DNA of 64,000 nucleotides from IMG/VR virus record IMGVR_UViG_3300025676_000014, positions 6,306 through 70,305 of that record; one strand, 5' to 3'. A program made the translations under genes and the position numbers. The notes below the pieces were generated by a model. That model searched no databases, had not been told where the DNA came from, and was given only the letters and a program-made list of their open reading frames with translations. Source of the stretch: a virus. Lineage: Duplodnaviria > Caudoviricetes. Below are positions 16,393 through 64,000 of the stretch, piece by piece; position 1 is the first letter of the stretch; every line of letters begins with the position of its first letter.

Positions 16393-16433
16393 GCCGGGCT
16401 GCCCGGCGGCCTGTCAAGCTTTTTTTATTCACA
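16393..16433. repeat. symmetric module copy 1 (right half only) with TTATTCACA box
   Basis: GCCGGGCTGCCCGGC-ggcct-GTCAAG-N6-TTATTCACA. Confidence 0.9.
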
Positions 16434-16503
16434 GCCCGTGCCATTTTCTTAAAAGCAGGGAATTTCACATCGGAGAAATCGCCCCCTTATAAGAAACTTT
16501 CCG

Positions 16504-16594
16504 CTCACGAATGAGCGACAAACAAGCTTGTCAATCAAAAAACCCCCATAATGAGCGGCAAAACGTCTTGCCACTCACGAATGAGCGACAAACA
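16504..16594 (+). repeat. iteron-like repeats AATGAGCGRCAAA x3
   Basis: Copies at 16510, 16550 and 16580; two share CTCACGAATGAGCGACAAACA. Confidence 0.75.
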
Positions 16595-16749
16595 TATAGG
16601 CTAATTAATTGCCATTATATAGCATAATTAAAAGTGTGTCATAAAAGGTGTTATTTTATTGCAGAAAAAGCTTGCGCTGGATTCAAGGATGTGAGACAAT
16701 TAGGAAGAGTTAAACAACAACAGTAAACCAAGAAAGCAAAAAAACTATT

Positions 16750-17625
16750 ATGCCAAAGATCGCAACACAAACCTCCGACTTCGATTTCACCGTGAAACAA
16801 GTACCCCTATTTGATGAGCAAGGACGCCGTTCGGGCTTCTTCGGCAATCAACGCGCCGACACGGGCGGAATATTGGGCGTGACTTCAGACCGCTACGGCA
16901 TCGTGCAGCATGGCTCGCTTATTGAAGCCGCTGAAGAGGGCTTCGAAAATGCTAACCTTGGCGAGTTCGAGCGGAACGTGTACGTTACTGGCGATGGTGC
17001 GCGGATGAGAGCACACTACGACTTCAAGGATCAGACTCGTGCGCTTCGGCGTGAGGATCGTCAGGTGGGTGATGAGGTAGGCTTACGCCTTACCCTTCAG
17101 AACTCTTTTGATCGCTCGCTTCGCGTGTCGTTCGCGTTGGGTATGCTTCGGTTGGTTTGCACCAACGGCATGACAACCCTCGAAAATGAGGTGAGCATGA
17201 CCAAGAAGCACTCGGCCAATGTCGAGACCAACTTCCTTGAGGACGCTATCACCAAGGCCGTGAGCAACTGGGACGCCGCCGTGATCAAGGCCGAGGCCTT
17301 GACCGCTCGCGCCATCGAGCATGATCAAGGCTTGACCATCCTCGGTAACCTTGTTCGCATGGGTGCGCTTTCGGATCGTATGAGCGGCGAAATCGCCAAG
17401 GTGTGGAACTCGCCTGAGTACGACCTCGACAAAGCCCGCAACCTTTACAACCTGTACAATGCGACCACTCAGCACTTGACCCGCAACGTCGAGGACACTC
17501 GCAGCGAACTCGCTGACCGTACTTCGCGCAACGTGTTCAAGAAGCTGCACGATGCGGTTGCCCGTCCGAGCAACATGACCAAGCTTCTGCTGCCTCTCAA
17601 GACTATTGAGGTGGAGAACAACTAG
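16750..17625 (+). CDS. DUF932 family phage/plasmid protein
   Basis: LGVTSDRYGIVQH, LTLQNSFDRS, LRLVCTNGM, RNLYNLYNA.T. Confidence 0.82.
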   Translation: MPKIATQTSDFDFTVKQVPLFDEQGRRSGFFGNQRADTGGILGVTSDRYGIVQHGSLIEAAEEGFENANLGEFERNVYVTGDGARMRAHYDFKDQTRALRREDRQVGDEVGLRLTLQNSFDRSLRVSFALGMLRLVCTNGMTTLENEVSMTKKHSANVETNFLEDAITKAVSNWDAAVIKAEALTARAIEHDQGLTILGNLVRMGALSDRMSGEIAKVWNSPEYDLDKARNLYNLYNATTQHLTRNVEDTRSELADRTSRNVFKKLHDAVARPSNMTKLLLPLKTIEVENN

Positions 17626-17752
17626 GCTACCCAGCCTAACCCCTCGCCCCTCTTTCATATCGCCGTCAGTGACGGCTGGGGCGGGGGGCTTTTCTTTGCT
17701 CAGATTACCAAGGTTACTATAAATAAGACCTAATAATATAGTAGCCCCGCAT

Positions 17753-17831
17753 TGTGGATAACTTTCCCTTGACAGGCTGCCGGGCTGCCCGGCCAAATGT
17801 CAAGCTTTATTTACTCACAGCCTGTGAATAA
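17753..17831. repeat. symmetric module copy 2, complete, with DnaA-box-like 9-mers on both sides
   Basis: TGTGGATAA-N6-CTTGAC-aggct-GCCGGGCTGCCCGGC-caaat-GTCAAG-N6-TTACTCACA-gcc-TGTGAATAA. Confidence 0.92.
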
Positions 17832-17891
17832 GTGACGAAAAAAAATAAAAAAAAAGCTCGCCTTTTTGTGTGGGTGTGCTATCATTTGCGT

Positions 17892-18314
17892 ATGGTTAAA
17901 ACATACATCACCAAGTGCGGCAAAGACATTCAGGTTTTCATCAACGGCGACACGCGAGAAGAAGCGGAGCCGATTCATTGGAGCCTATTCAATCACGGAG
18001 CAACCAATCAAGCTGACCCCGAATGGATAGACCAGACCACGTTTAGCTTTTGGACGCAAAGGAGTCGCTTGCTCCGAGCGTTTCAAAAAGCGGCCATCAA
18101 TGGCATCGTTAACAATCACTCGCATAAGTTTGAGGGCAAACGCGGTGCGCTTATTCCTGCCCTTGCGGATAAAATGGCGGCACGGCGTATGCGTCAATGC
18201 GTCAACAAGCCTTATGTGCGCCAAGTGTCCGTTGCTAATCTAAATTGCTACGGCATCGGAACCATTCGAGCAGAGAAGCCCGACAGCGACCACGGCAATC
18301 GGGAAACAATGTAG
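17892..18314 (+). CDS. hypothetical protein (leaderless start)
   Basis: ATG 6 nt after TATCAT -10. Confidence 0.6.
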   Translation: MVKTYITKCGKDIQVFINGDTREEAEPIHWSLFNHGATNQADPEWIDQTTFSFWTQRSRLLRAFQKAAINGIVNNHSHKFEGKRGALIPALADKMAARRMRQCVNKPYVRQVSVANLNCYGIGTIRAEKPDSDHGNRETM

Positions 18315-18348
18315 TTGACAAGGAGTTAAGATTGTGAGACAATTAGAA

Positions 18349-19095
18349 ATGGAAAGCAAAAAACCTATTATGAAACTAAAATTCAAAAATGCAAACGGTA
18401 AACTCAAGAAGATGGCAAAAAAGCTTGGCCTTGTACTCAAGACCTTCACACTCCCTGCGGGATATACTTGCCCAGGTGCAAAGGATTGCCTTGCGTATGC
18501 CGACAGGAAAACAGGCAAGATCACAGACGGAGAGGAAACAGAATGGCGTTGCTTTATGGCGTCGCTAGAAGCGACCTTTCCAAGCCTCCGCGCAATGGTG
18601 TGGGAGAATTTGGAAATGATTCGCAAAGCGTTGAAGGGTGGCGTGGAGGCGTGTGCGGATCTGATTTGCGAGTCATTGCCAAAAAAGTTTGACGTGATGC
18701 GCGTCCACGTTGGCGGTGATTACTTTTCCCGCGAATACTTTATGGCGTGGGTTGAAGTCGCAAAGCGAAATCCCGACAAGGTGTTTTACTCTTACAGCAA
18801 AAGCCTTGCGATTATTGCGGGCATCCCTAAACCTGACAATCTCGTTTTGACTGCCTCCCGTGGTGGCAAGTATGACGATTTGATTGATCGCCTCGCGTGG
18901 AAAGAGGCGCGTGTGGTTTACTCTGAACAGGAAGCCGCCGACCTCGGTTTAGAGATAGACCACGACGACGAACACGCAGCGTTTGGCAAAAAAGATTTTG
19001 CGTTGCTCATTCACGGTACGCAACCCAAGGGAAGCGCAGCGGGCGAAGCACTAAAGCAAATCAAAAAACTTGCAAAAGCTGCAAGTATCGCTTAA
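18349..19095 (+). CDS. GP88-like protein (gene product 88 family)
   Basis: TFTLPAGYTCPGA..C, RVHVGGDYFS.EY, FYSYSKS, LVLTASRGG. Confidence 0.75.
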   Translation: MESKKPIMKLKFKNANGKLKKMAKKLGLVLKTFTLPAGYTCPGAKDCLAYADRKTGKITDGEETEWRCFMASLEATFPSLRAMVWENLEMIRKALKGGVEACADLICESLPKKFDVMRVHVGGDYFSREYFMAWVEVAKRNPDKVFYSYSKSLAIIAGIPKPDNLVLTASRGGKYDDLIDRLAWKEARVVYSEQEAADLGLEIDHDDEHAAFGKKDFALLIHGTQPKGSAAGEALKQIKKLAKAASIA

Positions 19096-19158
19096 CCTTT
19101 AAAAAGATGGATATACTAATCGCATTCGTTTTTTTATCAGCAATCGGAGGAATTATCT

Positions 19159-19386
19159 GTGGATATACCAAACAATAAAATAGCAGACTTTGCAATACTA
19201 CAAAATTCGCGTACTAAAGTAACAGGTCTTTGGACTAAGGATCGCGGCGAATGGATAAAGGCAGAGCGGAGCGAGTACGAAGTTTTGGCCTTGGTCGCCA
19301 AGCTAATTCGCACCGCTAAAAATCCCAACGATGTTTTGCTTGCCATTGTAAAAGAGAACCCTCACCTGACAGGGCCAGAAGAATAA
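19159..19386 (+). CDS. hypothetical protein
   Basis: co-oriented ORF. Confidence 0.45.
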   Translation: MDIPNNKIADFAILQNSRTKVTGLWTKDRGEWIKAERSEYEVLALVAKLIRTAKNPNDVLLAIVKENPHLTGPEE

Positions 19387-19396
19387 TATTTTAATG

Positions 19397-19435
19397 CTTG
19401 ACATAGGCTGCCGGGCAGCCCGGCCGAAAGTCAAG
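19397..19435. repeat. symmetric module copy 3
   Basis: CTTGAC-N7-GCCGGGCAGCCCGGC-N5-GTCAAG. Confidence 0.9.
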
Positions 19436-19512
19436 ACTTTTCTTCAACTATTTTTTTCTTTATGACACAATTAGCTCTCGACTTTTGTGGGATTATATGA
19501 GAGAATACTCTT

Positions 19513-19632
19513 ATGAAAGTTAAAGCAAGAGTGAACAAGAAGGGGCTTATGGGCAGCGCGTCCCGTGAGCATAAAGTAAAGAAGGGCAAAGGGTCTTTCC
19601 GTCGCAGAAAAAAGCATCAGAAAGTTTTTTAA
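19513..19632 (+). CDS. ArfA-like ribosome-rescue peptide, 39 aa (not in the ORF track)
   Basis: MKVKARVNKKGLMGSASREHKVKKGKGSFRRRKKHQKVF; KKGKGS(F/Y).R..KH is the ArfA signature; ATG 6 nt after GAGAAT -10. Confidence 0.6.
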   Translation: MKVKARVNKKGLMGSASREHKVKKGKGSFRRRKKHQKVF

Positions 19633-19685
19633 TGCTTGCGTTAGCTTCAAGCCTATGATAGAATTAGAACAGTTAAGAGAACATT

Positions 19686-19880
19686 ATGAAAACCTACAAA
19701 ACCTACCAAGCGCGTAACGCCGTCAAGGCCGCGCAAGTCACCAACCACATCAAGGCCGCAAAAAAGAATGGTGTCGGCCACATCACCGCGAAGGCAGAGG
19801 CTTATCGCGTTTACAATATCAAGGCGGGCATCCCTTTGATTAAGCGAGGGCTTCAAGTCCGAGAGGGGGTGGCAAGTTGA
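19686..19880 (+). CDS. small basic hypothetical protein
   Basis: Follows promoter TTGCGT-17-TAGAAT. Confidence 0.55.
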   Translation: MKTYKTYQARNAVKAAQVTNHIKAAKKNGVGHITAKAEAYRVYNIKAGIPLIKRGLQVREGVAS

Positions 19881-20077
19881 AGGCCGTTATTGAAATTGAA
19901 TTGGGCAACTCAGCATTTGGCAGCAATGATGCCGAAAGATTATTTGAGATGCGGAACGTGCTTGAAAGGCTAATAGATAACGCTGACCGCATTATGGCGG
20001 CAGACGTTGGCGACTTCACAACCGCGCAAGACCACAACGGCAACACAGTTGCGAGAATGGACATCGTAGAGGATTAA
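19877..20077 (+). CDS. hypothetical protein
   Basis: I.IELGNSAF...E..R.L....D.....D.NGNTV pattern. Confidence 0.55.
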   Translation: MKAVIEIELGNSAFGSNDAERLFEMRNVLERLIDNADRIMAADVGDFTTAQDHNGNTVARMDIVED

Positions 20078-20080
20078 ATT

Positions 20081-20263
20081 ATGAGACAATTAAGAAAACC
20101 ATTTCAACACACACAAACACTTGTGATTGCAGAAGTAAGAGAACAAATCCAAGAGGACATCATTGCCTTTATTGATTCGGTTGTCCCTACGTCAAGTGAT
20201 GAGTATAGGAAAAACGCACTTTGCCAAATCGTAGTAGACAACTTTAAGAAATTGGAGGATTAA
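20081..20263 (+). CDS. hypothetical protein
   Basis: ATTATG start. Confidence 0.55.
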   Translation: MRQLRKPFQHTQTLVIAEVREQIQEDIIAFIDSVVPTSSDEYRKNALCQIVVDNFKKLED

Positions 20264-21285
20264 ATTATGAAAAAATGGTTAGTAACGAGAATAACTCATA
20301 CAACGATTGAAGTTGAATCGGAAACTGAACCCTTACAAGGTGATGATAAGTGGAAGTTTGAGGATGAACATCGCAAGGAACTTGAAGAAGAATATCGTAA
20401 TGTGGAGTGCGTAGATTGGGAAGTAACGGAATTGGAGGATTAAATGACAAAAAAAGAAACAAAACAAATCGACGCCACTTTAATGTGGGCAATCGTTGCC
20501 AGTAACAGAAATGCCGACAAGGGCAAACTATTAAGCGCGTTTGCCTTTGACATCAACCGAATCCGCTCAGGCAAAGAGCCGACAGCTACGAAGGAGTTGG
20601 TATAATGTACAGATACTTTAGAGCAACCTGTAACGAAGATGGCACAGAACCAGATGAAAGAACCATCATAGAGGTTCCCTCCCCAGCGGTAACTGGCGGG
20701 GTGGTTTTCGCTATCGGTATCTTGGTGGGTGTGATTGTAACAATCTTATTTAGATAACTATGAAACACACAGTAACAAACGGCCCATATGGTTTAATTAG
20801 AATTGGAGATATTTATTTCAATAGTAATGGAATCTTTAATCTAGAGGGCAAAAAGATTGGCACAAAGAAAGCAAAAAAGATTATAAAATTAGAGGACTTT
20901 GATTATGAACAAAACTAAAAACAAAATGACTAGAGCAATGAGCGCACACCTCGGTCTGCACCGCGTCAAGGGAGCCACCTCGGAGAAGGAAAGGAACTCG
21001 CCGAGAGCGGTTAGGAGGAGAGCGGAAAGACGAAATCGGGCAAGACGGTTGCGGTGAGGCTTTGATAAAAACGGAGAACTAATTAAATGACAACTAAATT
21101 CGGCCCATTAACAAAAGCGTTTTGCTTAAAGCGACCACGGTTCAGACTGTTGCGTTTGTGTTCTACCTGTGATGAGACGGTGAGCAAAGAGGGCAGCAAG
21201 AAATATGACTGTCCAAGGTTCTGTTCGTGTGAGGGAAATAGCGAGGTCAAAGCTTGGTTCAAGTGATAGAAATAGCAAATTAAAG

Positions 21286-21322
21286 CTTGACATCCCGCCG
21301 GGCTGCCCGGCCAAAAGTCAAG
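21286..21322. repeat. symmetric module copy 4
   Basis: CTTGAC-atccc-GCCGGGCTGCCCGGC-caaaa-GTCAAG. Confidence 0.9.
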
Positions 21323-21364
21323 AACAAAATGAAAAAAACTTTCTTCAATTTAACTAAAAAAAAG

Positions 21365-21440
21365 CTTGTACCTAGAGCAAGGGTATGGCATAATTAAAGA
21401 CCAGTGAGGGTAACACCTCCAACGATCTTTGAAACAATTT
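21365..21440 (+). promoter_or_regulatory. sigma70 promoter, hairpin and boxA-like antitermination leader of an RNA operon
   Basis: TTGTAC-17-CATAAT; GAGG-GTAACA-CCTC hairpin 21406-21419; GATCTTTGAAA 21424-21434. Confidence 0.6.
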
Positions 21441-21442
21441 AA

Positions 21443-21580
21443 GCCACGGAAGTTGGTGCTGTTAAATGAAACGCAGCAGTCTTAAAGCCGAAAGCAGTTA
21501 CCTCTGGGGAGATATCCCAAACAAGGAGACTAGCTGGGAGTCGTAAGTCTTGGGGGCGGGGTTCGAATCCTCAACGTGGC
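21443..21580 (+). ncRNA. tRNA-like structured RNA (unit 1, 138 nt), not a canonical tRNA
   Basis: GCCACG/CGTGGC terminal helix, T-loop GGTTCGAATCC 21560-21570, TGCTG/CAGCA and AGTCT/AGACT helices. Confidence 0.65.
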
Positions 21581-21588
21581 AACAATTT

Positions 21589-21669
21589 ACTGGGAGGCGA
21601 AACACAGCCTTGGCAAGCCTAACGCAGCAAACGGGATACGCGTCCTGTTAGGGGCGAGGAAGCACCAGT
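21589..21669 (+). ncRNA. structured RNA unit 2
   Basis: ACTGG/CCAGT closing helix, AGGC/GCCT and CCTAAC/GTTAGG hairpins, AACAATTT linkers on both sides. Confidence 0.5.
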
Positions 21670-21679
21670 ATAACAATTT

Positions 21680-21901
21680 GGAGCATCGACGGATGTTCCA
21701 TCGGAGCGTAGTCTAATAATGGTTTGCAAGAGCCATAGGACACCGAAACAAAAAGCAGGAGATTATCAATCTCTGGGAGCCTAGTAGCACAGTTCGCGAG
21801 GACGCAGCTATGAAGTAAGTAGGGTACGAAGTACGTAGGGAAACTGAACTTTATCAGGCCCCGAAAGTAGTTGCAGGTAATAAAGAAATCCTGTCGTTCC
21901 A
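21680..21901 (+). ncRNA. structured RNA unit 3 (approx. 220 nt)
   Basis: Ends complementary (GGAG..CGACGG / CTGTCG.TTCC); internal hairpins GGAGCATC/GATGTTCC, ATGGTT/AGCCAT, GAGAT/ATCTC; no credible plus-strand ORF. Confidence 0.5.
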
Positions 21902-21959
21902 TTAATTTAGTAACAAAAAAAGCTTGCCACAGGGGCAAGGGTATGATAGGATTAGAACA

Positions 21960-22328
21960 ATGAAAGCAATAAAAATCGACGCGACCAACAGAACCATCAC
22001 CGAAGTCCAATACGATGACTTCAGAGACATTCAACGCCACATCGGCTGTGATACCTTCAGCCAAGGTATGCCCTTGCCAGAGGGTGATGTGCTTTGGGTA
22101 GACGATTGCGGTTGGATGACCGCCAAAAAGGCATTCACCTTTATGGGCAACGTGTTCGCTGGCAACGGGCTTATCACTGGCAGCGATGGGGATGGTGGGG
22201 GGAAGGATTGTCTTTGCAATGTTATGGCTGGTCAGCTTATGGCCAAGTTTATGGCAGGGGAAAAAGAAATCACTGACGATATGCGTGAACGAGCATTTGA
22301 CTCTTGGACAGTAACGGAGATTGAATAA
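21960..22328 (+). CDS. DUF3846-like phage protein (leaderless start)
   Basis: MKAIKIDA..RTITEV, IQ..IGC, VLWVDD.G, FAGNGLITG. Confidence 0.65.
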   Translation: MKAIKIDATNRTITEVQYDDFRDIQRHIGCDTFSQGMPLPEGDVLWVDDCGWMTAKKAFTFMGNVFAGNGLITGSDGDGGGKDCLCNVMAGQLMAKFMAGEKEITDDMRERAFDSWTVTEIE

Positions 22329-22890
22329 TATGAAAAACCTACTAGATACCGTATTGGGCACAGCATCGACTGTGATGATTGCCGCCGCTATTGCTTACGC
22401 GCTTCTATGCGCTGGGGCTTATAGCCTAACGGCAGCAGAGCAACCACTAACCAAAGATGAGCAAACCATTTCTGTCACTCTAATGGGTGAAGCGCGTGGA
22501 GAAAAGAGTTTCGGTATGTATGCCGTTGCTTGTGTGATTCAAAAACGAGCAGACGAGCGTGAGTTGACTCCCGCCCAAGTGTGCAGGGAAAAATGGCAAT
22601 TCTCTTGCTGGAACAAAGGGCAGGAAAAGTATCTCAACCTAATGAAGCGGCTACTCAAGGCGAACACGGTAGAAGCGCGATATGCAAAGCAGTTGGCGCG
22701 AGCCATTTGTGCGGGTGGTCGATTGATTCACAGCTTCACTGGCGACGCTAATCATTATTATAGCACGAAAGCAATGTCGGAACCGCCTTACTGGGCTTAT
22801 AAGACTATTAAAAGAAAAAACCAAGTACCCATCAAAGTACGCATCACCCCAAGCCGAATCATTGGAAACCACGCATTTTACAAACTCTAG
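22321..22890 (+). CDS. cell wall hydrolase, SleB / Hydrolase_2 family
   Basis: TLMGEARGE, MYAVACVI.KR, KWQFSCWN, HYY, IGNHAFY; N-terminal TM/signal segment. Confidence 0.85.
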   Translation: MNNMKNLLDTVLGTASTVMIAAAIAYALLCAGAYSLTAAEQPLTKDEQTISVTLMGEARGEKSFGMYAVACVIQKRADERELTPAQVCREKWQFSCWNKGQEKYLNLMKRLLKANTVEARYAKQLARAICAGGRLIHSFTGDANHYYSTKAMSEPPYWAYKTIKRKNQVPIKVRITPSRIIGNHAFYKL

Positions 22891-22963
22891 AAAACTGAAG
22901 GCTAAAGCGAAACTCAACTAATAAGGGAAAACTGAAGGCTAAAGCGAAACCTCGCTAATAAGG
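22890..22963 (+). repeat. 37-bp tandem duplication
   Basis: GAAAACTGAAGGCTAAAGCGAAAC-(TCAA/CTCG)-CTAATAAGG twice. Confidence 0.85.
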
Positions 22964-22980
22964 AGAGGGGAAAGAAAAAG

Positions 22981-23045
22981 CTTGACATCCTGCCGGGCTG
23001 CCCGGCCAAAAAGTCAAGACAAAGTTATGCCCAACGTGTTAATAA
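22981..23045. repeat. symmetric module copy 5
   Basis: CTTGAC-N5-core-N6-GTCAAG-N6-TTATGCCCA-acg-TGTTAATAA. Confidence 0.88.
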
Positions 23046-23097
23046 CTTCGTGAATTTAATTCTTGCAATCTCGCGGGATTTATGGTTTAATATACGT

Positions 23098-23340
23098 ATG
23101 TTGAAAATGAACGTGACCCTTAAAGCCAACGACCAAGCCACCCGCCGCACCCGTAACCGCATCGCGGAACACGGCCCAGACTTTCGGGCGGTGAAGTCGG
23201 GCAATTGTCCTGACTTGGGCAGCGATTTGCATTTGCTTGTTCGCTCGCAGGATGGCTGGCTTGGTTGGTTGCCTTGGAATGAAGTCAACTGGCAGCACGT
23301 ACAGGGTAAGGATTTCGCGCTGGTATTAGGGTGTGAATAA
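23098..23340 (+). CDS. hypothetical protein (leaderless start)
   Basis: ATG 6 nt after TTTAAT; TTGCAA -35. Confidence 0.6.
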   Translation: MLKMNVTLKANDQATRRTRNRIAEHGPDFRAVKSGNCPDLGSDLHLLVRSQDGWLGWLPWNEVNWQHVQGKDFALVLGCE

Positions 23341-23547
23341 CTTTTTAAATTAGTGCTTTACTTTCCTAGTTTTTTCTGTTATACTATAAGCATAGAAAGT
23401 GAGAGACCAAACGATGTAAAATTAACCAAAAGACTCAGTCATCCAGCGAGGTGACCACAATTTTTACCGCCCAGCGTGGACTGACAGGATCTGAAGCGCA
23501 GGACAAGGCCAGTTGTGGGGCTGAGTACCACGACACAATTTTAAATT

Positions 23548-23778
23548 ATGAACGACAACAACAACCACGACGCTCGCATCTCTTGCGAGGAAATCTACAC
23601 CGAGGATATGGGGCCAGCGACTTGGGCCAACGAGCCTGAGCCTACCACGCACAAGGAGGCCTATGGACGCTGCGAGGACGCGCCTTGCTGCGGTTGCTGC
23701 GGCAACTACGAGGAGGACGGCTATGGCTCCCCCGCCGATGACGCTTGGCACGACGCCAACGAGTACCCCGAATGGTAG
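23548..23778 (+). CDS. small acidic Cys-cluster protein
   Basis: RCEDAPCCGCCG motif. Confidence 0.6.
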   Translation: MNDNNNHDARISCEEIYTEDMGPATWANEPEPTTHKEAYGRCEDAPCCGCCGNYEEDGYGSPADDAWHDANEYPEW

Positions 23779-23781
23779 GGG

Positions 23782-23843
23782 TGTGAATAACTTCTTTGAT
23801 TTAAGGGTTGACATTTGGCCGGGCAGCCCGGCGGTTTGTCAAG
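23782..23843. repeat. symmetric module copy 6 at the convergence point of plus and minus blocks
   Basis: TGTGAATAA-N16-GTTGAC-atttg-GCCGGGCAGCCCGGC-ggttt-GTCAAG. Confidence 0.88.
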
Positions 23844-23851
23844 AACAAAGT

Positions 23852-24388
23852 TTAGTTTTTACAATATTCTTTTGGCACTTGCGCCCAGCATTCTCTTGCG
23901 ATAATAACTTTGCGAGCGATATAAATAGGATCAATGCGCGTGCTTAAACGCGCGGGGTTTATTTTGTCACCCTTATAGTGGGTGAAGCTCACGAAGTTAC
24001 GATAGACCTTGGGATCATAAGTGATCTGTTTCCACTCATAGCCTTCCCTGACATCCATTTCCCGATGCTTCAAGGATTGAGCGGCGGCGGTAGCGTGATC
24101 CAATTCCTCTTCGTCCATATCGTCGTGACGCCACACAGCATTGATGATGCACCCACGAATGACCGCGTGAACATTCTTGCGGCCTTCATCCCGCACACGC
24201 TGGTTGCCCTTTGGCCCGACAGCAAACTTCACGGGGTACTTGGTATTGCCATCCATAACAACGCATAGGGCAGTACCTTCGACAAGGCCATTCTTACGCA
24301 CGGAGTAAACCACTTCGTCGCGATAGCGCAGATTTCGATAAACTTCGCGCCCGAACGTTTTGATTGCGTCTTTTAATGTGAAAGGCAT
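23852..24388 (-). CDS. conserved phage hypothetical protein
   Basis: VYRNL...YSVR..GLV, F.V...G..RVR.EGRKNVHA.IRG, ITYDP..Y..F pattern. Confidence 0.65.
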   Translation of the reverse strand: MPFTLKDAIKTFGREVYRNLRYRDEVVYSVRKNGLVEGTALCVVMDGNTKYPVKFAVGPKGNQRVRDEGRKNVHAVIRGCIINAVWRHDDMDEEELDHATAAAQSLKHREMDVREGYEWKQITYDPKVYRNFVSFTHYKGDKINPARLSTRIDPIYIARKVIIARECWAQVPKEYCKN

Positions 24389-24394
24389 AATGTT

Positions 24395-24622
24395 TTAACT
24401 CACTTTCGAACGGTCAACGTAAACGTCGATTTCGTTTTCTGTTAGTTCTAACTCTTCACCGTCTTGGTCAATCACAACCACGGTGTCAAATTCTGTGATT
24501 TCATCAACTATCATTAGTTGCATTCCTACGCGAACTTCGTCGCCTACTTTTACTTGTTGGTTTTCTATTGTCATAATCTTTAATCGTTTACTGTGTATAG
24601 TATAGCACACTGGGTGGGACAT
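24395..24622 (-). CDS. small acidic SH3-like hypothetical protein (start probably at MTIEN)
   Basis: VKVGDEVRVG..LMIVDEI. Confidence 0.5.
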   Translation of the reverse strand: MSHPVCYTIHSKRLKIMTIENQQVKVGDEVRVGMQLMIVDEITEFDTVVVIDQDGEELELTENEIDVYVDRSKVS

Positions 24623-24634
24623 TTGCCGTCCTAC
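24614..24634 (-). promoter_or_regulatory. palindrome class-II promoter element, copy a
   Basis: GTGGGAC-atttgcc-GTCCTAC, 9 nt from TGC-TATACT on the minus strand. Confidence 0.7.
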
Positions 24635-25083
24635 CTATCAAATTCTTTTTGGTCTTCACTCACTAGCTCACCCAGTTCGCCAAGCCCTTCGAGGTTGCGT
24701 GGGTCATTGTCTACCAGCTTGCGAGTCAACTCGCGCACGAGGGCTTGCTTCTTTGCCACTACGCTCTTGCTGCTGACCTTAGCCCAATCGGCGGGTTGGT
24801 TGATGTCTACGCCTACGGTGAACACGTTGCGGACATTGAAACCGAGCATCGACAGGGCGAGGCGAATGAACGGCGCGCTTAAGTCTCCGCGAGCGGTTAA
24901 GATGTCAAACGCTTTGCCGCTATCGCGAACCAGCACGCCCAATGGGGTGAGATCCTCTTCCTCTAGGTTAAGGATCGCGCTAGGGTTGGTGAAATCAAAC
25001 AAACGCTTGGAGCCGCGCACCTCTTTGATGAGGGTTCCGTCTAAGTCGAATAAGGGTTTTAAAATGTCGTTCTTAACTTTCAT
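24631..25083 (-). CDS. HAD-like domain protein (leaderless start)
   Basis: LFDLDGTL, ILTARG, VDND HAD motifs. Confidence 0.6.
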   Translation of the reverse strand: MKVKNDILKPLFDLDGTLIKEVRGSKRLFDFTNPSAILNLEEEDLTPLGVLVRDSGKAFDILTARGDLSAPFIRLALSMLGFNVRNVFTVGVDINQPADWAKVSSKSVVAKKQALVRELTRKLVDNDPRNLEGLGELGELVSEDQKEFDR

Positions 25084-25227
25084 TACGAATAGTATAACTG
25101 AAAAAAACGAAAAAGTCGAGAACCAATTGTGTCATAAAAAAGAAAGTTTTTTCACTTTAGCCTTGACATTTGGCCGGGCAGCCCGGCTACTTGTCAAGGA
25201 AAAGTTATTCACATCTGCCGTCCTACC
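25080..25227 (-). repeat. symmetric module copy 7 plus duplicated approx. 110-bp promoter head
   Basis: CTTGAC 25162, core 25173-25187, GTCAAG, N6, TTATTCACA 25205; near-identical to 25738-25844. Confidence 0.9.
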
Positions 25228-25318
25228 TTGTGACTTTCTTTTTCTTATCGTCTGCGTGGTTGTGGTCGGCTTGCTTTGCTCGTCGGGCTTATCATTATCG
25301 TTTTCGTTTTCATATTCT

Positions 25319-25486
25319 TTACTTCCAGCAATCACTTTCGTCAATTTCAAAATTCCAAGCGTCTTGGTCGTGGTCTCGGCAGTCATTGCCGAAGCTATCG
25401 TTTCGGACACCTGTAAAAGTTTCGTCTTCGTCGCTGTGCCAACCTCTGAAGGTTAGCTCGTTTGTGTTTTCATTTTTGTTTTTCAT
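25319..25486 (-). CDS. small acidic protein, 55 aa (not in the ORF track)
   Basis: MKNKNENTNELTFRGWHSDEDETF...DCWK downstream of a class-II promoter. Confidence 0.5.
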   Translation of the reverse strand: MKNKNENTNELTFRGWHSDEDETFTGVRNDSFGNDCRDHDQDAWNFEIDESDCWK

Positions 25487-25525
25487 AATCTTTATCTTCT
25501 AACTGCGTCTAGTATAGCATACGAG

Positions 25526-25546
25526 GTGGGACATCTGCCGTCCTAC
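25526..25546 (-). promoter_or_regulatory. palindrome class-II promoter element, copy c
   Basis: GTGGGAC-atctgcc-GTCCTAC, 9 nt from TGC-TATACT. Confidence 0.7.
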
Positions 25547-25740
25547 CTGTTAAATTCTTTGAATCTTTCAAATCGTCCTTCCATCGGCTGAACCCTTGTG
25601 GTTCCCCATTTCTTTTTGGCAATCCGCTTGGCGTGTGCCAAGTCAAATGCCTTGATGTGGGTGGTGGTGGTAGTGCCATCGCTCCACGTGGCAATTCTTA
25701 CTTCAAAAAGTTCGTCTTTCATTTCGTCTTTCATTTTCAT
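25543..25740 (-). CDS. hypothetical protein
   Basis: HIKAFDLAHAKRIAKK; shares an A.D..HA..IA motif with 28420-28632. Confidence 0.55.
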   Translation of the reverse strand: MKMKDEMKDELFEVRIATWSDGTTTTTHIKAFDLAHAKRIAKKKWGTTRVQPMEGRFERFKEFNR

Positions 25741-25858
25741 TACGAATAGTATACCTGAAAAAATCGTAAAAGTCGATCACCAATTGTGTCATAAAAAAGA
25801 AAGTTTTTTCACTTTAGCCTTGACATTTGGCCGGGCAGCCCGGCAGCCTGTTGTCAAG
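25738..25858 (-). repeat. symmetric module copy 8 plus duplicated promoter head
   Basis: CTTGAC 25819, core 25830-25844, GTCAAG 25853. Confidence 0.9.
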
Positions 25859-25946
25859 CTTTATTTTTGCATTTAATCGCGCCAGATGTAGTCGTCAACG
25901 TTCCAGCCTAGTATTATAATGGCGGCAATAAGTATTAAGATAATCA

Positions 25947-26213
25947 TTATGCCTCCACCATATCAAATGCGAATGTCTCACCTTCGTCGCTTGAGTAAAT
26001 CTCAAACAGATTCTTGGTGATAGGGTTCCACACTTGCACTGTTTCAAGGCTCGCGCCTTCGTCATCAAATGAATGCCAATTCATAATGTGATACGTTCCC
26101 ATTGCGATAGGGTGCTTCACCCGCTTGTCAGTGCTGCGTCTGTGTAACGTCACCTTGCCTTGGCTCAAGTTGTTGGCATCGGTGTCTTCGTAGGTTGCTT
26201 CGTACTGTTTCAT
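25947..26213 (-). CDS. hypothetical protein
   Basis: co-oriented ORF. Confidence 0.55.
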   Translation of the reverse strand: MKQYEATYEDTDANNLSQGKVTLHRRSTDKRVKHPIAMGTYHIMNWHSFDDEGASLETVQVWNPITKNLFEIYSSDEGETFAFDMVEA

Positions 26214-26216
26214 AAT

Positions 26217-26483
26217 CTAGTCTCTGTCTCTGATGTCGTTGCCTTCATCATCATTATAATAACCTTCCACGTTCCAAAGTTTATCATAGTCAACCTTTGG
26301 ATATGCGACTTTGCCTTGCGGCGTGTCGTAGTGTGTTTGTTTGTTCACACCTTTGGCGTAAATCTCTTGAGCCAGTAGCTCCATCTTTTTGTTATATGTC
26401 ATACTCATAATTTTAAATCTCTTACATTTCCGAATAAGTGCCATCGTAGCAGCTTGGCTCATAAGCCTCTGGCTGCGCGTCAT
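26217..26483 (-). CDS. hypothetical protein
   Basis: co-oriented ORF. Confidence 0.5.
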   Translation of the reverse strand: MTRSQRLMSQAATMALIRKCKRFKIMSMTYNKKMELLAQEIYAKGVNKQTHYDTPQGKVAYPKVDYDKLWNVEGYYNDDEGNDIRDRD

Positions 26484-26715
26484 ACCAAAACTCTTCGGAG
26501 GTGGGCATCATATCTGAAAAGTTATCCTCGATTTTTTGAGTGCTCTCCTGCACTTCGGATATGTCAAAAATGTAATGGTTTGCCGACTTGGCTCTTGCGG
26601 TGGCAATCTCCAAGGTTGGGGCTTCGATGATGTAATTTCCGAGCTGGCCATAACGGCCTTCGGTTTCTACGTTGAAGGTTTTTATTTTGTTTTTCATATC
26701 TGTTTCAATTATCAT
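26422..26715 (-). CDS. hypothetical protein beginning MIIETDMK (leaderless)
   Basis: ATG 6 nt after TATAAT; first 8 codons identical to 28420-28632. Confidence 0.6.
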   Translation of the reverse strand: MIIETDMKNKIKTFNVETEGRYGQLGNYIIEAPTLEIATARAKSANHYIFDISEVQESTQKIEDNFSDMMPTSEEFWYDAQPEAYEPSCYDGTYSEM

Positions 26716-26736
26716 AAGTCTATTATAGCATAGAGG

Positions 26737-26757
26737 GTGGGACATCTGCCGTCCTAC
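26737..26757 (-). promoter_or_regulatory. palindrome class-II promoter element, copy d
   Basis: GTGGGAC-atctgcc-GTCCTAC, 9 nt from TGC-TATAAT. Confidence 0.72.
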
Positions 26758-26968
26758 CCTTTAACTTTCGCAAACCTCAACCCACTCATCTTCTTCGTTG
26801 GTTGCGGGGTGAACGGTAACCTCGAAAGGCCCGAATGTGAATGTCTCTTCTCTGTTGTTTTCTTCGTTCATAATCTTGTTTCTCTCACTCTCAATATAAA
26901 GATTGTATCACAGAAAAACAGAAAAGTCGAGCACAAACCAGGTAAGTTATTAACATTTATTTTGCTAT

Positions 26969-27035
26969 TGTGAGTATTTAGTTCTTGACATTTGGCCGGG
27001 CAGCCCGGCGGCCTGTCAAGGAAAAGTTATTAACA
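26969..27035. repeat. symmetric module copy 9, complete 67 bp
   Basis: TGTGAGTAT-N6-CTTGAC-atttg-core-ggcct-GTCAAG-N6-TTATTAACA. Confidence 0.9.
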
Positions 27036-27048
27036 GTCTTCGGGGTTT

Positions 27049-27654
27049 TTACTTGTTGAAAAGATAACTCATAGTGCTGTGAAACCGCGAGGAGATAAGC
27101 AATTTAATCCAACAGTCCTTACCGACGCGCGGATGTGCCTTCCGCAAGGAGCCGTTTTTGGTGACCGTCTGCTTCCATTCGTCCCGTCTATACAATTCAA
27201 GGATTACTTTACTAGGAATCTCCCACCATTCAAGCAGTCCCTTTTCACGCACTAGCGAGGTGTCGCATATAAGAAACATATCCACTTTAGAGCATTTAAA
27301 TTCAATCGCCTTGTTTACTTCGGGGCCGTCCAGCCTCCGAATTGCGTCACTCGAATTCACAAAACATACCGTCGAGGAGGGCAGAGTAAAATCGCGAGTA
27401 CGGATTTCCCACTTTTCACCATTGCCCGCAACAGCGTCCCAAGCTGCGTGCGAGCATTCGGCGGCGAGTCCGATATACGTTTGAAAATCTGCCTCAACCT
27501 CGAAACCAGTACTTGAATTGCCGCTGTGGCTCCGTTTATATTTTTTTAAAAGCTTATTGTGTTCAATCATAAAACTGGAATAGCCAATGCCGTGAGTGAT
27601 TTCCTTACCTCTATAGTAAGCAATTTCTTTGGTAATGTTTTGCAGTGATTTCAT
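27049..27654 (-). CDS. hypothetical protein
   Basis: 201-aa ORF. Confidence 0.65.
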   Translation of the reverse strand: MKSLQNITKEIAYYRGKEITHGIGYSSFMIEHNKLLKKYKRSHSGNSSTGFEVEADFQTYIGLAAECSHAAWDAVAGNGEKWEIRTRDFTLPSSTVCFVNSSDAIRRLDGPEVNKAIEFKCSKVDMFLICDTSLVREKGLLEWWEIPSKVILELYRRDEWKQTVTKNGSLRKAHPRVGKDCWIKLLISSRFHSTMSYLFNK

Positions 27655-27664
27655 ATTAATTTAC

Positions 27665-28318
27665 TTATTTAAATTGTGAATCCCATTTTGCTTGAGAGTA
27701 TCCAAGATTTAACCCCATCCCTCTGCGATAGCGTATAAGCGTGGGGTGAATCCCGCACTTTCTGCCGTAGACTACTGCCGTCCATTGGGCCGCGCCTTCA
27801 CCTGTGTGGCGAGTGTCGCAATGTTTAAACTCGTGCAATAGTGAAACGGTCACCGTTGAGGTTAGCCCGTGGCTTAAATTCCTATCTCCAATGGCTATAC
27901 TAGCAGCAGAAGGCCAAGCAACTGATCCTGCGTTATTAACTTTTGGATCACAGTTATGGATGATTGACTTAACGCCCCGCTGGCCAACTGCGTACATATA
28001 GGGAGATCCTTTTTCAATGATCTTTAAATGCTTAACGATTCTGTTATGGAAAAAGATATCGCCCCGTATCTTCCACCCGTCATAGGTGCGCACTACTGAG
28101 CAGGGGTCAATGCCAGTATAAGGCTGGCGCAGTAAAGCCCTGCGATCCTTCGGCGTAAGCTCAGCAGAGGCGAGGGTGGTGAGCAGTAGCGATGCGATTA
28201 TTAGGTTGATTGTTTTCATAGTCTTAGGCCCATTCTCCTGTGCTGTGGATGTACCAGATAGGGTAAACCTTTTCGTTAGCGTATACGGGGTGGTGCATCT
28301 TAAAGTTTTTAAGCGCAC
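27665..28318 (-). CDS. putative secreted HExxH metallopeptidase-like protein (start probably MKTINL)
   Basis: Signal-peptide-like MKTINLIIASLLLTTLASA; SLLHEFKH. Confidence 0.5.
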   Translation of the reverse strand: MRLKTLRCTTPYTLTKRFTLSGTSTAQENGPKTMKTINLIIASLLLTTLASAELTPKDRRALLRQPYTGIDPCSVVRTYDGWKIRGDIFFHNRIVKHLKIIEKGSPYMYAVGQRGVKSIIHNCDPKVNNAGSVAWPSAASIAIGDRNLSHGLTSTVTVSLLHEFKHCDTRHTGEGAAQWTAVVYGRKCGIHPTLIRYRRGMGLNLGYSQAKWDSQFK

Positions 28319-28419
28319 CTGCCTTGTCGAATCCGCAAGTGTTGAACGTGAGTCCGTTGCGCAAGTTGATTGTGTATTTGAGTCCTTTCATAATCTTTTA
28401 ATCCTTCTCTGTTGAATTT

Positions 28420-28632
28420 TTATCGTTCCATACTTTCTTCGTAGGTTAGCACTCTTGTGCCCTTGCTACCTTCTCCAATGAGCTTGATCTTTACGCCTTT
28501 GCAGTAAAGCCTTTCAGCAATACGCCTAGCGTGTGGGACATCGTATGCCTTGATAAAGCCAAGGGTTGCATCCCCATCAAACGTGAGGACTTCAAATAGT
28601 GTTTCTGTTTTCATATCTGTTTCAATTATCAT
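28420..28632 (-). CDS. hypothetical protein beginning MIIETDMK (leaderless)
   Basis: ATG 6 nt after TATAAT. Confidence 0.6.
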   Translation of the reverse strand: MIIETDMKTETLFEVLTFDGDATLGFIKAYDVPHARRIAERLYCKGVKIKLIGEGSKGTRVLTYEESMER

Positions 28633-28653
28633 AAGTCTATTATAGCGTAAGAG

Positions 28654-28674
28654 GTGGGACATCTGCCGTCCTAC
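28654..28674 (-). promoter_or_regulatory. palindrome class-II promoter element, copy e
   Basis: GTGGGAC-atctgcc-GTCCTAC, 9 nt from TATAAT. Confidence 0.72.
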
Positions 28675-28933
28675 CCTCTAACTTTCTTCATCCTCTACAG
28701 GGTGGAGGAAAGGGCCGAGGTGGGCGTTATCCCGTTGCCATTGTCGGGCGAGTTCCCGCACTTGTTGCACGGATTCGTTCCAGCGTTGCACACGGGCCTC
28801 GGCCCTGCGTTGCTCTTCTTGTACTTCTTGTTCAGTTCTCATTCGTCTCTCACTTTCAATAGGGAAAGTATAGCATAGCAGCGACTGAATTACAAGAAAA
28901 ATCGCACCAAGTTATCAACATTTATTTGCGCAT

Positions 28934-29000
28934 TGTGGACATTTTATGCTTGACTTCCTGCCGGGCTGCCCGGCCAAATGTCAAGCTTTATTTACCAACA
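28934..29000. repeat. symmetric module copy 10, complete 67 bp, at the divergence point
   Basis: TGTGGACAT-N6-CTTGAC-ttcct-core-caaat-GTCAAG-N6-TTACCAACA; extra TTATCAACA at 28912. Confidence 0.9.
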
Positions 29001-29075
29001 ATCGTAAGTTTTTTTGTGAACATTTACCCAGGATTTATCTTTACTTTTGCGGCTATTTATGGTTTAATACTAACA

Positions 29076-61938: not shown

Positions 61939-62277
61939 ATGGCGGCGCATTATGATTTAAATATTACAAAAGGGTCATCTTTTACAGTGAGATTACTGGC
62001 CCAAGATACTGGCGGCTCCGTCATCGACTTAACAAACTGGAGCGTTCGCGGTTACGCTAAAATTAAGTATTCAGAATCTAATCTACTTGTTGATTTGAAC
62101 CCGCAGAAAGTCGCCCCATACTCTAACGGTTACATAGACATACAACTTACGGCAGCGACAACCTCAACCCTCCCAGTTACTGAAGGGGTTTACGATATAG
62201 AGATGTACGATGATAGCGGCTACGTAGATAAACTTTTAGCTGGATATGTAAGAGTCTACCCAGAAACGACATACTGA
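61939..62277 (+). CDS. BppU-like / tail adaptor domain protein
   Basis: [12 protein letters not shown]......G..IDLT.WS.RG..K; GVYDIEM...GYV..LL.G.V.VYPE. Confidence 0.6.
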
Positions 62278-64000
62278 TGAGTCATATAACTACAGGTATA
62301 GTTCCAGGTAATGTTCCAACGGTAGTTCCTATCGCGGGAATGAATGCTACCATTCTGGTTAGCGGCGCAACTGGACCGAGCGGCGCTGACGGGGTCACTG
62401 GCCCCTCGGGCGCTACTGGCGCTGCGAGCACGGTGGCTGGCCCAGCAGGAGCTACTGGCCCAGCAGGAGCTACTGGCCCATCTGGAGCTACTGGCGTTTC
62501 AGGTTCTGCGGGTGCTGCTGGTTCGACTGGCCCAGCGGGAGCCACTGGCCCATCTGGAGCTACTGGCGTTTCGGGTTCTGCTGGCTCTGCTGGCGCTGCG
62601 GGCGCTGCTGGTGCGACTGGCCCAAGCGGGCAGGTCGTTGGAGGAATTGTTTCTGGGAACATGACCATGAGTGGGAATATTTACGCCGCTCAAAGTGGCG
62701 TTTATGACATTGGTCAAGCTTCTTCCCCGTTTAAAGATTTATATTTAAAAGGAAATTCAATCCACTTAGGACAAACGACACTAAGCTCTTCGGAAAATGG
62801 TCAACTTAAAGTCTCTGGCCAAGGAGGCGGAGTCTCCGTCTTTGTCCTAACTGGGAGCTCAAGCTCTGGTGCTGCTGGCGCAACTGGACCGAGCGGCGCG
62901 ACTGGACCGAGTGGCGCGACTGGCGCAGCGGGTGCAGCGGGAAGCGCTGGCTCTGCTGGTGCTGCTGGCGCAACTGGACCGAGCGGCGCAACTGGCGCAG
63001 CGGGTGCAGCGGGAAGCGCTGGCTCTGCTGGTGCTGCTGGTGCAACTGGACCGAGTGGCGCAACTGGCGCAGCGGGTGCAGCGGGAAGCGCTGGTGCTGC
63101 TGGTGCTGCGGGAGCAACTGGCCCCGCTGGTGCTGGAGGTTCTGCTGGCGCAACTGGACCGAGCGGTCTGTCGGGCGCGGTGGGAAGTGCTGGCGCTGCG
63201 GGAGCTACTGGTCCTGCGGGCGCAGGAGGAAGCGCTGGCTCTGCTGGTGCAACTGGACCGAGCGGCGCGACTGGCGCAGCGGGTGCGGCGGGAAGTGCTG
63301 GCGCTGCGGGAGCTACTGGCCCTGCGGGTGCAGGAGGAAGTGCTGGCGCTGCTGGCGCAACTGGACCGAGTGGCGCAACTGGCGCAGCGGGAAGCGCTGG
63401 CGCTGCTGGCGCGACTGGACCGAGCGGCGGACCAACAGGGGCCACTGGGCCAACAGGCCCAGCGGGAACTGCTGCGGCAGCGGGCGTTGACGGACAAATT
63501 CAATACAACAATGGCGGCTCCGCAATGGGCGGCGCTTCGAGACTTTACTACAACGACTCCACAAATAAAATTGGCGTAGGCGACGTTCCTTCTCCGACTT
63601 ATCAACTTCATGTTTCTGGAGATATATTAGCAACAACTAATATTCATGCCTCTGGAAAATTATATGTCGCTGGGCCAACGGAGGTTGCCACGACAGGCAG
63701 CTACGTAAGATACAATAACGCGACAAGCGAATACGAATTTACAACAGCAACAATTTTAGGACCGACTGGCCCTGCGGGCGCAGGAGGAAGTGCTGGCGCT
63801 GCTGGTGCAACTGGACCGAGTGGCGCAACTGGCGCAGCGGGAAGCGATGGCTCTGCTGGCGCTGCTGGCGCGACTGGACCGAGTGGCGCAACTGGCGCAG
63901 CGGGAAGCGATGGCTCTGCTGGCGCTGCTGGCGCGACTGGACCGAGTGGCGCAACTGGCGCAGCGGGAAGCGATGGCTCTGCTGGTGCAACTGGACCTGC
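62277..64000 (+). CDS. collagen-like (Gly-X-Y) fibre protein, open at the window end (not in the ORF track)
   Basis: ATG 62277 overlaps the upstream TGA; [11 protein letters not shown]... then [19 protein letters not shown] blocks interrupted by globular segments; no stop found. Confidence 0.9.

Follow-up and report, generated by a model that had tools for sequence, protein, structure and literature searches.

Why should a phage genome carry ten copies of one palindromic element, all of them packed between the small genes of a single region? The question is raised by a 64-kb stretch of DNA (hereafter the window) from a 70-kb IMG/VR viral contig, estimated to be ~44% complete, in which ten modules lie within 12.6 kb of small genes downstream of a clamp loader gene. 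Each module is centered upon a GC palindrome, termed the core, which is flanked by CTTGAC/GTCAAG arms and in many cases by 9-bp boxes outside of the arms. We consider it moderately probable that these modules are the shared junctions of self-contained early-gene cassettes, making them a palindromic counterpart of the promoter-early stem-loop (PeSL) cassettes, the repeated composites of a stem-loop and an early promoter found in the hyperplastic regions of T4-type phages (PMC2839356, PMC4122927). As judged from comparisons among related contigs, the heads and tails of different cassettes are found joined at the core in different genomes.

The 15-bp core, GCCGGGCWGCCCGGC, occurs in ten exact copies (16393, 17779, 19410, 21297, 22992, 23818, 25173, 25830, 26995 and 28960), while only 0.04 matches would be expected by chance according to shuffled sequences. 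Variants having one or two mismatches were absent from the window, as were further copies from the whole 70-kb contig. Arms accompany 19 of the 20 core halves, reading outward as GTCAAG in 18 and as GTCAAC in one (left of 23818), and only the left arm of 16393 is missing. The spacer separating arm from core measures five bases (N5) in 16 halves and N6, N7 or N8 in the other three. Nine boxes are positioned exactly six bases outside of the arms (16425, 17753, 17811, 23025, 25205, 26969, 27027, 28934 and 28992) and a tenth is found at N16 (23782). An earlier note on this DNA, prepared from its letters alone, had described the ten cores, the arms, the boxes at N6 and N16, and the confinement of this symmetric element to one region, all of which proved accurate. 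The modules extend over 41–67 bp, with complete 67-bp copies at 17753–17819, 26969–27035 and 28934–29000. The central base of the core is only ever A or T, and it flips among orthologues as well as in a natural variant. The latter is a strain 90–95% similar to the window, represented by a metatranscriptome contig covering 16345–16455, in which the core and arm of module 1 are kept, the central T is replaced by A, the spacer is altered, and the box TTATTCACA becomes CTACTCACA.

The identity of the boxes is less uniform than their placement. The same note had called them DnaA-box-like, a description that holds for the four of ten conforming to the DnaA consensus TTWTNCACA (16425, 17753, 25205 and 23782), but not strictly for the other six, which differ from it by one or two bases. 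Strict matches to TTWTNCACA number ten in the whole window, five of them no more than 45 bp from a core center. When the broader pattern TTWYNMACA was required to match at all nine positions, boxes were found at an offset of exactly six from 6 of 19 window arms and from 10 of 47 arms in relatives, as compared to a background of 2.7e-4 per position, although the module copies are homologous repeats and hence not independent events. The predicted excess at N6 is present, but what it shows is that the box belongs to the repeat itself rather than that boxes originated many times over.

Related phages were surveyed by an exact-pattern scan of IMG/VR for the module and by a second scan requiring only the arms and box, with the core left free. 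The first found the same module in four further contigs (G001–G004), one of which, G004, contains seven copies within 10 kb. The second yielded further lineages having CTTGACA/TGTCAAG arms, a T-run, a TTATTCACA-gcc-TGTGA pair and another palindromic core, namely CGGGACCGGTCCCG in G005–G008 and CCAGGGG..CCCCTGG in G009. Thus, a module that the earlier note proposed to seek in related phages is indeed present there, and three lineages employ three different palindromic cores, with self-complementarity kept in each. In G005, a complete genome of 178 kb, the core is present in eight copies, all of them exact and within 9 kb, with none elsewhere and no near-variants; G006 has nine copies. Thus, all cores of a genome are the same, whereas another lineage has a different core throughout; arms and boxes are common to all. 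Even the box pair may change in concert, as in G009, where it reads TTACGCAC-AAA-GTGCGTAA and both halves have changed together. Arm-core spacing is less constrained, ranging from 5 to 12 bp in the close relative G004. A scan for core plus arm among ~185,000 bacterial and archaeal species (one genome each) returned just five single, scattered matches in unrelated high-GC genomes, and the modules therefore do not belong to a host repetitive extragenic palindrome (REP) or miniature inverted-repeat transposable element (MITE) family, a possibility the earlier note had raised. No Rfam family matched the modules, and nothing relevant was found in the literature on the core sequences.

One of the key features of the modules is the division of their surroundings into what we term heads and tails. 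A head consists of half a core, the spacer, GTCAAG, often a T-run, a TTAYNMACA box that usually has an inverted partner, a sigma70-type promoter and, frequently, a leaderless ATG. A tail comprises the end of the upstream gene, in several cases its own canonical terminator, sometimes a lone box, and then CTTGAC with the other core half. As the earlier note had proposed, sigma70-like promoters lie outside of the modules on either strand; they are found on nine sides, beginning 53–65 bp beyond the core. Where a promoter is present, the box in most cases opens an inverted pair with N3 or N13 spacing, as in TTACTCACA-gcc-TGTGAATAA at 17811 or ATACTCACA-N13-TGTTAATAAC left of 26995. The pair is followed by 15–16 or 25–26 bp, a -35 hexamer (TCGACT, TCGCCT or TTGTAA), 16–18 bp, and a -10 hexamer (TATACT, TATCAT or TACAAT). 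Because the ATG is located only 6–7 nt after the -10 at 17892, 19513, 23098, 25083 (minus strand), 25740 (minus strand) and 29076, these six early mRNAs are leaderless. The six genes lack Shine-Dalgarno sequences, whereas other window genes have GGAG-type ribosome-binding sites, and the same geometry recurs in relatives (L035:14407, L035:10151 and L036:10393, where L035 is G005 and L036 is G007). The individual modules and their associated features are as follows, with orthologous sides identified by clustering the 112-nt flanks that start 18 nt outside of each core (clusters designated by c).

16393–16433: module 1, with core at 16393–16407, right arm at 16413–16418, T-run and box TTATTCACA at 16425–16433, no left arm; located after the tRNA-Arg gene as the head of the DUF932 cassette, with orthologous heads in G004, G005 and G007 (cluster c2)
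17753–17819: module 2, complete at 67 bp, reading TGTGGATAA, N6, CTTGAC, N5, core, N5, GTCAAG, N6, TTACTCACA, with the tail of the DUF932 gene on the left and the head of the next cassette on the right (orthologue at G004:24678); predicted two-tier hairpin of -20.8 kcal/mol, z -3.4
17811–17894, plus strand: head of cassette B, with the TTACTCACA/TGTGAATAA inverted pair, conserved in G004
17858–17885, plus strand: promoter of cassette B, TCGCCT-16-TATCAT; ATG at 17892, 6 nt past the -10, leaderless
19397–19435: module 3, consisting of both arms and the core; a T-rich tail follows to its right, and this side forms a head (promoter TCGACT-17-GAGAAT, leaderless ATG at 19513)
21286–21322: module 4, arms and core; head in common with G007:5258 (cluster c9)
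21366–21394: right-side promoter of module 4, TTGTAC-17-CATAAT, of the CTTG-N9-CAAG class, preceding a non-coding RNA stretch
22981–23033: module 5, with left arm, core, right arm at N6, box TTATGCCCA at 23025 and partner TGTTAATAA at 23037; promoter TTGCAA-17-TTTAAT and leaderless ATG at 23098
23782–23843: module 6, a tail-to-tail junction at the left end of the inverted block; box at N16, left arm variant GTTGAC
23844–28933, minus strand: block of minus-strand cassettes bounded by modules 6 and 10, with plus-oriented homologues in G005 and G007
25162–25213: module 7, combining a tail on the right, with box TTATTCACA at 25205, and a head on the left
25119–25091, minus strand: promoter of the module 7 head, TCGACT-17-TATACT; leaderless ATG at 25083
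25819–25858: module 8, right arm at N8; its left half is the same head as that of module 7 (cluster c5)
25776–25748, minus strand: promoter of the module 8 head; ATG at 25740
26969–27035: module 9, complete at 67 bp; its left half is a minus-strand head of cluster c1, reading ATACTCACA-N13-TGTTAATAAC-N15-TCGACT-17-TACAAT
28934–29000: module 10, complete at 67 bp, a head-to-head junction at the right end of the inverted block
28895–28867, minus strand, and 29040–29069, plus strand: divergent promoters of module 10, the latter with a leaderless ATG at 29076; same arrangement in G001, G002 and G003

The evidence that carries our preferred interpretation comes from the reassortment of these heads and tails. 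The modules at 16393, 17779, 19410 and 21297 occupy orthologous junctions in G004, where the flanking proteins are 65–77% identical; cores and arms have been preserved there, but spacer sequence and length have not. Past 21297, the window and G004 diverge into ~10 kb of mostly unrelated genes, which are again punctuated by modules. For comparison with G005 and G007, the cassettes are given letters (A, DUF932; B and C, GP88 family; d, a 39-aa protein; E, cell-wall hydrolase; F, L5 gp82-like) and each module is written as M. In the window, the order is clamp loader, tRNA, M, A, M, B + C, M, d, further genes, M, RNA region + E, M, further genes, and F, the last being inverted. In G005 it is clamp loader, M, A, M, F, M, d + B + C, M, E, whereas in G007 it is clamp loader, M, F, M, A, M, E, M, M, d + B + C. 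The flank clusters illustrate the same exchange at individual modules: G005:11065 combines c11 on its left with c7 on its right, G007:3946 combines c11 with c2, and c2 is also the right flank of G005:8848. Likewise, G005:10151 and G007:5258 have a common left flank (c10), but their right flanks are c1 and c9, respectively. Direct inspection places the switch between left and right flanks inside the shared 60–75 bp. With flanks reassorting and with cassette order and orientation differing among the window, G004, G005 and G007, the suggestion that breakpoints in gene content would coincide with the modules is borne out, as is the related one that the modules serve as recombination sites for cassette shuffling.

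Orientation provides a further indication. All homologues of the 23.8–28.9 kb block are oppositely oriented relative to matches outside of it, and the block ends at a tail/tail module (23818) on one side and a head/head module (28960) on the other. The block is thus an inversion bounded by modules 6 and 10, and this arrangement of its ends is the product expected of recombination between two self-complementary repeats. Since a module is its own reverse complement, any two copies are both direct and inverted repeats, and exchange between them could yield a deletion, a circle or an inversion; the inversion of the 5-kb block, the restriction of the central base to A or T, and the concerted replacement of cores would all follow from this property. 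The identical 40–75 bp of a module would provide a homology patch for the phage's own recombination system, and repeated exchange in both orientations would keep the cores of a genome identical while leaving only A or T free to flip at the center. No tyrosine recombinase (PF00589) was detected in G000, complete G005 and G006, although all 14 control genomes score, and no serine recombinase (PF00239) was detected in a complete relative. It is thus economical to assume general homologous recombination acting on the shared patch.

A second role proposed for the core and arms is that of transcriptional punctuation. Each module is predicted to fold as a two-tier RNA hairpin, with a lower stem of 6–8 bp formed by the arms, an internal loop of ~4x4, and a 6-bp GC stem capped by a triloop (-17 to -23 kcal/mol, z from -1.7 to -4.8). 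Together with the U-run of the head, this hairpin would stop read-through from the upstream cassette, in which case each cassette would be transcriptionally autonomous. The G005 lineage has an almost uninterrupted hairpin (-28.7 kcal/mol) with U7 after it, which is the form of a textbook intrinsic terminator, and all four of the two-armed G005 modules have a T-run of 6–7 on the downstream side of the hairpin. In the window, a T-run (at least five T in eight) lies past the arm in 7 of 20 halves. Termination at the modules is accordingly plausible for part of the family, but it is unproven for all of it.

The boxes would complete such a cassette as operator sites of its early promoter. In relatives, a complete leaderless promoter is formed by TGTGAATAAC-N6-CTTGACA together with a -10 (TATATT or TACTAT) 17 bp further on and an ATG 6 nt beyond that (L035:14407 and L035:10151), and in L042, an unrelated marine phage contig of 34% GC, TTATCCACA-ggc-TGTGGATAA-N6-CTTGACA-N16-TAGAAT precedes a gene. 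Because box-N6-CTTGACA recurs in complete promoters, the box is presumably the operator of the family's early promoters and the arm corresponds to their -35 hexamer. A box also occurs 16 bp upstream of the window promoter at 23357, away from any module. Within the modules themselves, two such operator-plus-minus-35 units face inward at the GC core and no -10 follows, an arrangement that none of the supportable models accounts for. Several ways of making a promoter from the inward-facing units were considered and rejected. The arms are not working -35 hexamers, as the sequence 16–19 bp downstream of TTGACA is either the GC core or CAAATG-type hexamers lacking the essential A2/T6, and the 19-bp spacer of a MerR-type promoter similarly leads to no hexamer with these bases. 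A symmetric bidirectional promoter would place its two hexamers only 23 bp apart, a phage sigma-factor promoter using the core as its -10 conflicts with the variable spacing in G004, and an N4-type hairpin promoter is countered by the lack of a recognized virion RNA polymerase and by a loop that differs between lineages.

Several observations weigh against the cassette-junction interpretation. A U-run in the sense of the upstream gene is found at only three of the ten window modules (16393, 17779 and 19410) and on the wrong side at four others; as part of the downstream cassette's head, the T-run can come to face the wrong way after an inversion. Termination can be only part of the explanation, given that a canonical terminator is already present in some tails. 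No covariation is seen in the arms, CTTGAC being kept even where the core differs, and the arm-core spacers are not complementary. Furthermore, a hairpin leaves unexplained why the arms and N6 box are identical to the operator and -35 of the complete promoters at L035:14407, L035:10151 and in L042. Low-depth metatranscriptome and metagenome contigs yielded neither readable transcript ends nor joints centered on modules. Recombination at the modules is likewise derived from comparisons rather than observed, and the single rearrangement joint found in a population sample, connecting 26697 to 25511, falls outside of any module. This joint was seen in one contig of a marine DNA run, which links 26697 back to 25511 with 15 extra letters, suggesting either a tandem duplication or a circular form of the 1187-bp segment (25511–26697) that contains the module at 25830.

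Contrary to the earlier note, which knew of no named element having this architecture, the PeSLs represent a named kind that the modules resemble most closely, though PeSLs are not palindromic. PeSLs have been described in the phages RB49/phi1, T4/PST and KVP40/nt-1 (Arbiol et al. 2010, PMC2839356; Comeau et al. 2014, PMC4122927). Like them, the modules are repeated intergenic composites clustered in the hyperplastic early region of a large myophage, they have a sigma70-type early promoter and a gene start downstream of a GC-rich stem-loop, and they are found at indels, replacements and displacements between relatives. Recombination at PeSLs inserts, deletes, replaces and displaces genes, and terminator activity, promoter activity and mini-circles have all been shown for PeSLs (PMC2839356, PMC4122927). 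The differences are also considerable. As a palindrome of 41–67 bp, a module also works as an inverted repeat, with an inversion to match. It carries inward-facing CTTGACA hexamers and boxes on both sides; its core never varies among the copies of one genome but is switched between lineages; its promoter is situated 53–65 bp from the core, with the operator in between, rather than directly adjoining; many of the genes it heads are leaderless; and the window phage lies outside of the T4-like phages. The PeSL authors had themselves speculated that the conserved stem may be a protein target (PMC2839356, PMC4122927). Integron attC sites offer a looser parallel, as there, too, the cassettes change order and are delimited by imperfect palindromes whose outer motifs are conserved while the middle varies. 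Unlike integrons, this system has no IntI-type recombinase, its cassettes carry their own promoters, its outer motifs are unrelated to R''/R', and it resides in a lytic phage genome. If the modules are cassette junctions, they would provide a natural example of the "plug-and-play" early region of large lytic phages, in which autonomous units, each having its own promoter, operator and punctuation, are connected via one universal palindromic adaptor.

What, then, of the explanations in which the modules act primarily as DNA-bound platforms? In the broadest of these, a lineage-specific phage dimer would occupy the GC palindrome, and a box factor together with sigma region 4 of RNA polymerase would occupy the inward units lacking a -10, with the assembly serving as an insulator or roadblock, as a regulator of neighboring promoters, or as a dedicated integron-like cassette exchange site. 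We regard this as unlikely, yet it makes good sense of certain observations. A core that is exact within a genome and different between lineages is the expected outcome of co-evolution with a genome-encoded protein, although gene conversion between copies would explain this uniformity equally well, and the equivalence of arms and boxes to the operator and -35 of complete promoters also speaks for it. Moreover, some modules sit between a canonical terminator and the next promoter and may be little transcribed, and the reassortment joints map within the module. The 5–12 bp arm-core spacing of G004 is unsuited to a rigid complex and argues against a nucleoprotein platform such as the earlier note envisioned; in addition, no candidate DNA-binding protein was identified, and neither a tyrosine nor a serine recombinase is present in a complete relative. 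A more specific version, in which the core is the site of a candidate phage dimer and the box units dock a conserved factor (possibly DnaA) along with RNA polymerase, forming an integron-like exchange and insulation system that lacks an integrase, strikes us as decidedly unlikely. That host DnaA itself binds the TTATNCACA 9-mers, whether for DnaA-coupled early-gene control, datA-like titration or dispersed origins, is very unlikely in our estimation, though not without support. Besides the four conforming boxes, one of them a perfect TTATCCACA, most of the variation falls at the N position of the consensus, and ATTCACA-type boxes are the DnaA boxes of Epsilonproteobacteria (PMC5043019). The same 9-mer family has also been reported from the palindrome-rich non-coding injection-stop (iss) region of T5-like phages, where the variants TTATCCACA, TTATTCACA, TTATGCACA, TTATCAACA and TTATTAACA are termed DnaA/"DnaA*" boxes and are paired 3 bp apart, as in the modules (Davison, bioRxiv 10.1101/866236). 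The recurrence of box-N6-CTTGACA, with perfect TTATCCACA boxes, as a complete promoter in the unrelated low-GC contig L042 further hints at a conserved and possibly host-encoded factor. Conversely, several of the six divergent boxes depart from the consensus at its CACA end (AACA or CCCA), and the T5 pairs are tandem (TGTTGATAA-gtc-TGTGGATAA), located in a terminal repeat rather than between cassettes, and devoid of a CTTGAC arm at N6, whereas those of the modules are inverted. DnaA binding is hypothetical in T5 itself. The inverted pairing, the coordinated change of both halves in G009, the AACA/CCCA ends and the CTACTCACA variant would be no less compatible with a dimeric regulator than with DnaA. 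The origin reading entertained by the earlier note is not supported: GC skew has no origin signature, as cumulative skew rises smoothly across the module region with no shift, and no AT-rich 13-mer-type unwinding element adjoins the modules. Whichever factor is responsible, DnaA or a phage regulator, box-N6-CTTGACA seems to be an operator common to several uncultured marine phage groups.

Two further explanations were considered. As an RNA processing or stability element, either an RNase III-type cutting site or a 3' protective hairpin comparable to the intergenic R sites of phage T7, the module would have the requisite intergenic position and a consistent fold. This is nonetheless highly improbable, considering that the helix of ~13 bp in all is short for RNase III, that the internal loop of 4–12 nt is asymmetric in G004, that the arms lack covariation, and that canonical terminators precede some of the modules. 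A miniature mobile element (MITE/REP-like) spreading through the early region would likewise be a short palindromic repeat, and the complete copies do have TG...CA outer ends. However, the near-absence of matches among bacterial and archaeal species, the lack of target-site duplications at the modules, the failure to see any empty sites (junctions devoid of a module), the presence of four copies at orthologous sites in the diverged relative G004, and the absence of tyrosine and serine recombinases together render it scarcely tenable.

Regarding the phage itself, the sequencing runs containing window DNA are marine/seawater metagenomes. The window encodes rIIA, rIIB, the clamp loader, PhoH, a sigma-like protein, an ERCC4-type nuclease, a large terminase, baseplate and tail-fibre proteins, and one tRNA-Arg. 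Its large terminase shares only ~23% identity with that of any isolated phage and its best rIIA match among isolates, Ruegeria phage RpAliso, is 29% identical, and the phage therefore represents an uncultured marine myophage lineage that is not truly T4-like. Megablast against isolated phages matched the tRNA as the sole portion of the window, a 2387-aa protein of the phage matched no family, and modules were looked for in RpAliso, but none was found. With the lineage not in culture, the present value of these observations is comparative and hypothesis-forming.

A number of additional features were encountered alongside the modules. Separate small marine viral contigs of 38–39% GC (L040–L048 and L052, e.g. 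L046 4579–5925) contain five perfect TTATCCACA boxes within 1.3 kb, flanked by GGGAGTTTGGGAGTTTG direct repeats, a cluster resembling an iteron-plus-DnaA-box replication origin, in which one box is part of a GTCAAG-N6-TTATCCACA-N3-TGTGG unit. In some modules of L035 (14407, 14720 and 17800) and L036 (10393 and 12545), a second palindrome, GAGACNNNGTCTC, takes the place of the right arm, and in this CGGGACCGGTCCCG lineage it is followed by TGTGAATAAC and a complete promoter. A second promoter class occurs in the window at 16665–16700, 21356–21394 and 21915–21952, consisting of an A-run, CTTG-N9-CAAG overlapping the -35, 7 nt, and a -10 of GACAAT, CATAAT or TAGGAT.

The region behind the promoter at 21366–21394 is poor in open reading frames (21400–21910). 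Contigs of a marine metatranscriptome run cover 21734–21892 at a word depth of 366–842, which is far above the remainder of the window, and a tRNA-type T-loop, GGTTCGAATCC, is present at 21560. Rfam gives a weak match to the manA RNA at 21679–21904 (20.5 bits, E 0.14, below the gathering score). Past module 1, a 250-bp non-coding region (16408–16660) is conserved in G004, G005 and G007; it includes two copies of CTCACGAATGAGCGACAAACA (16504 and 16574), each having a small hairpin within it, and a strong minus-strand promoter-like site, ATGACA-17-TATAAT (16642–16614), is directed into it. Between the cell-wall hydrolase gene and module 5 (22895–22950), the direct repeat CTGAAGGCTAAAGCGAAAC is found at 22895 and 22932. 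Lastly, G+C content rises sharply to 59% at 62000–64000, inside an open-ended gene with collagen-like tail-fibre repeats.

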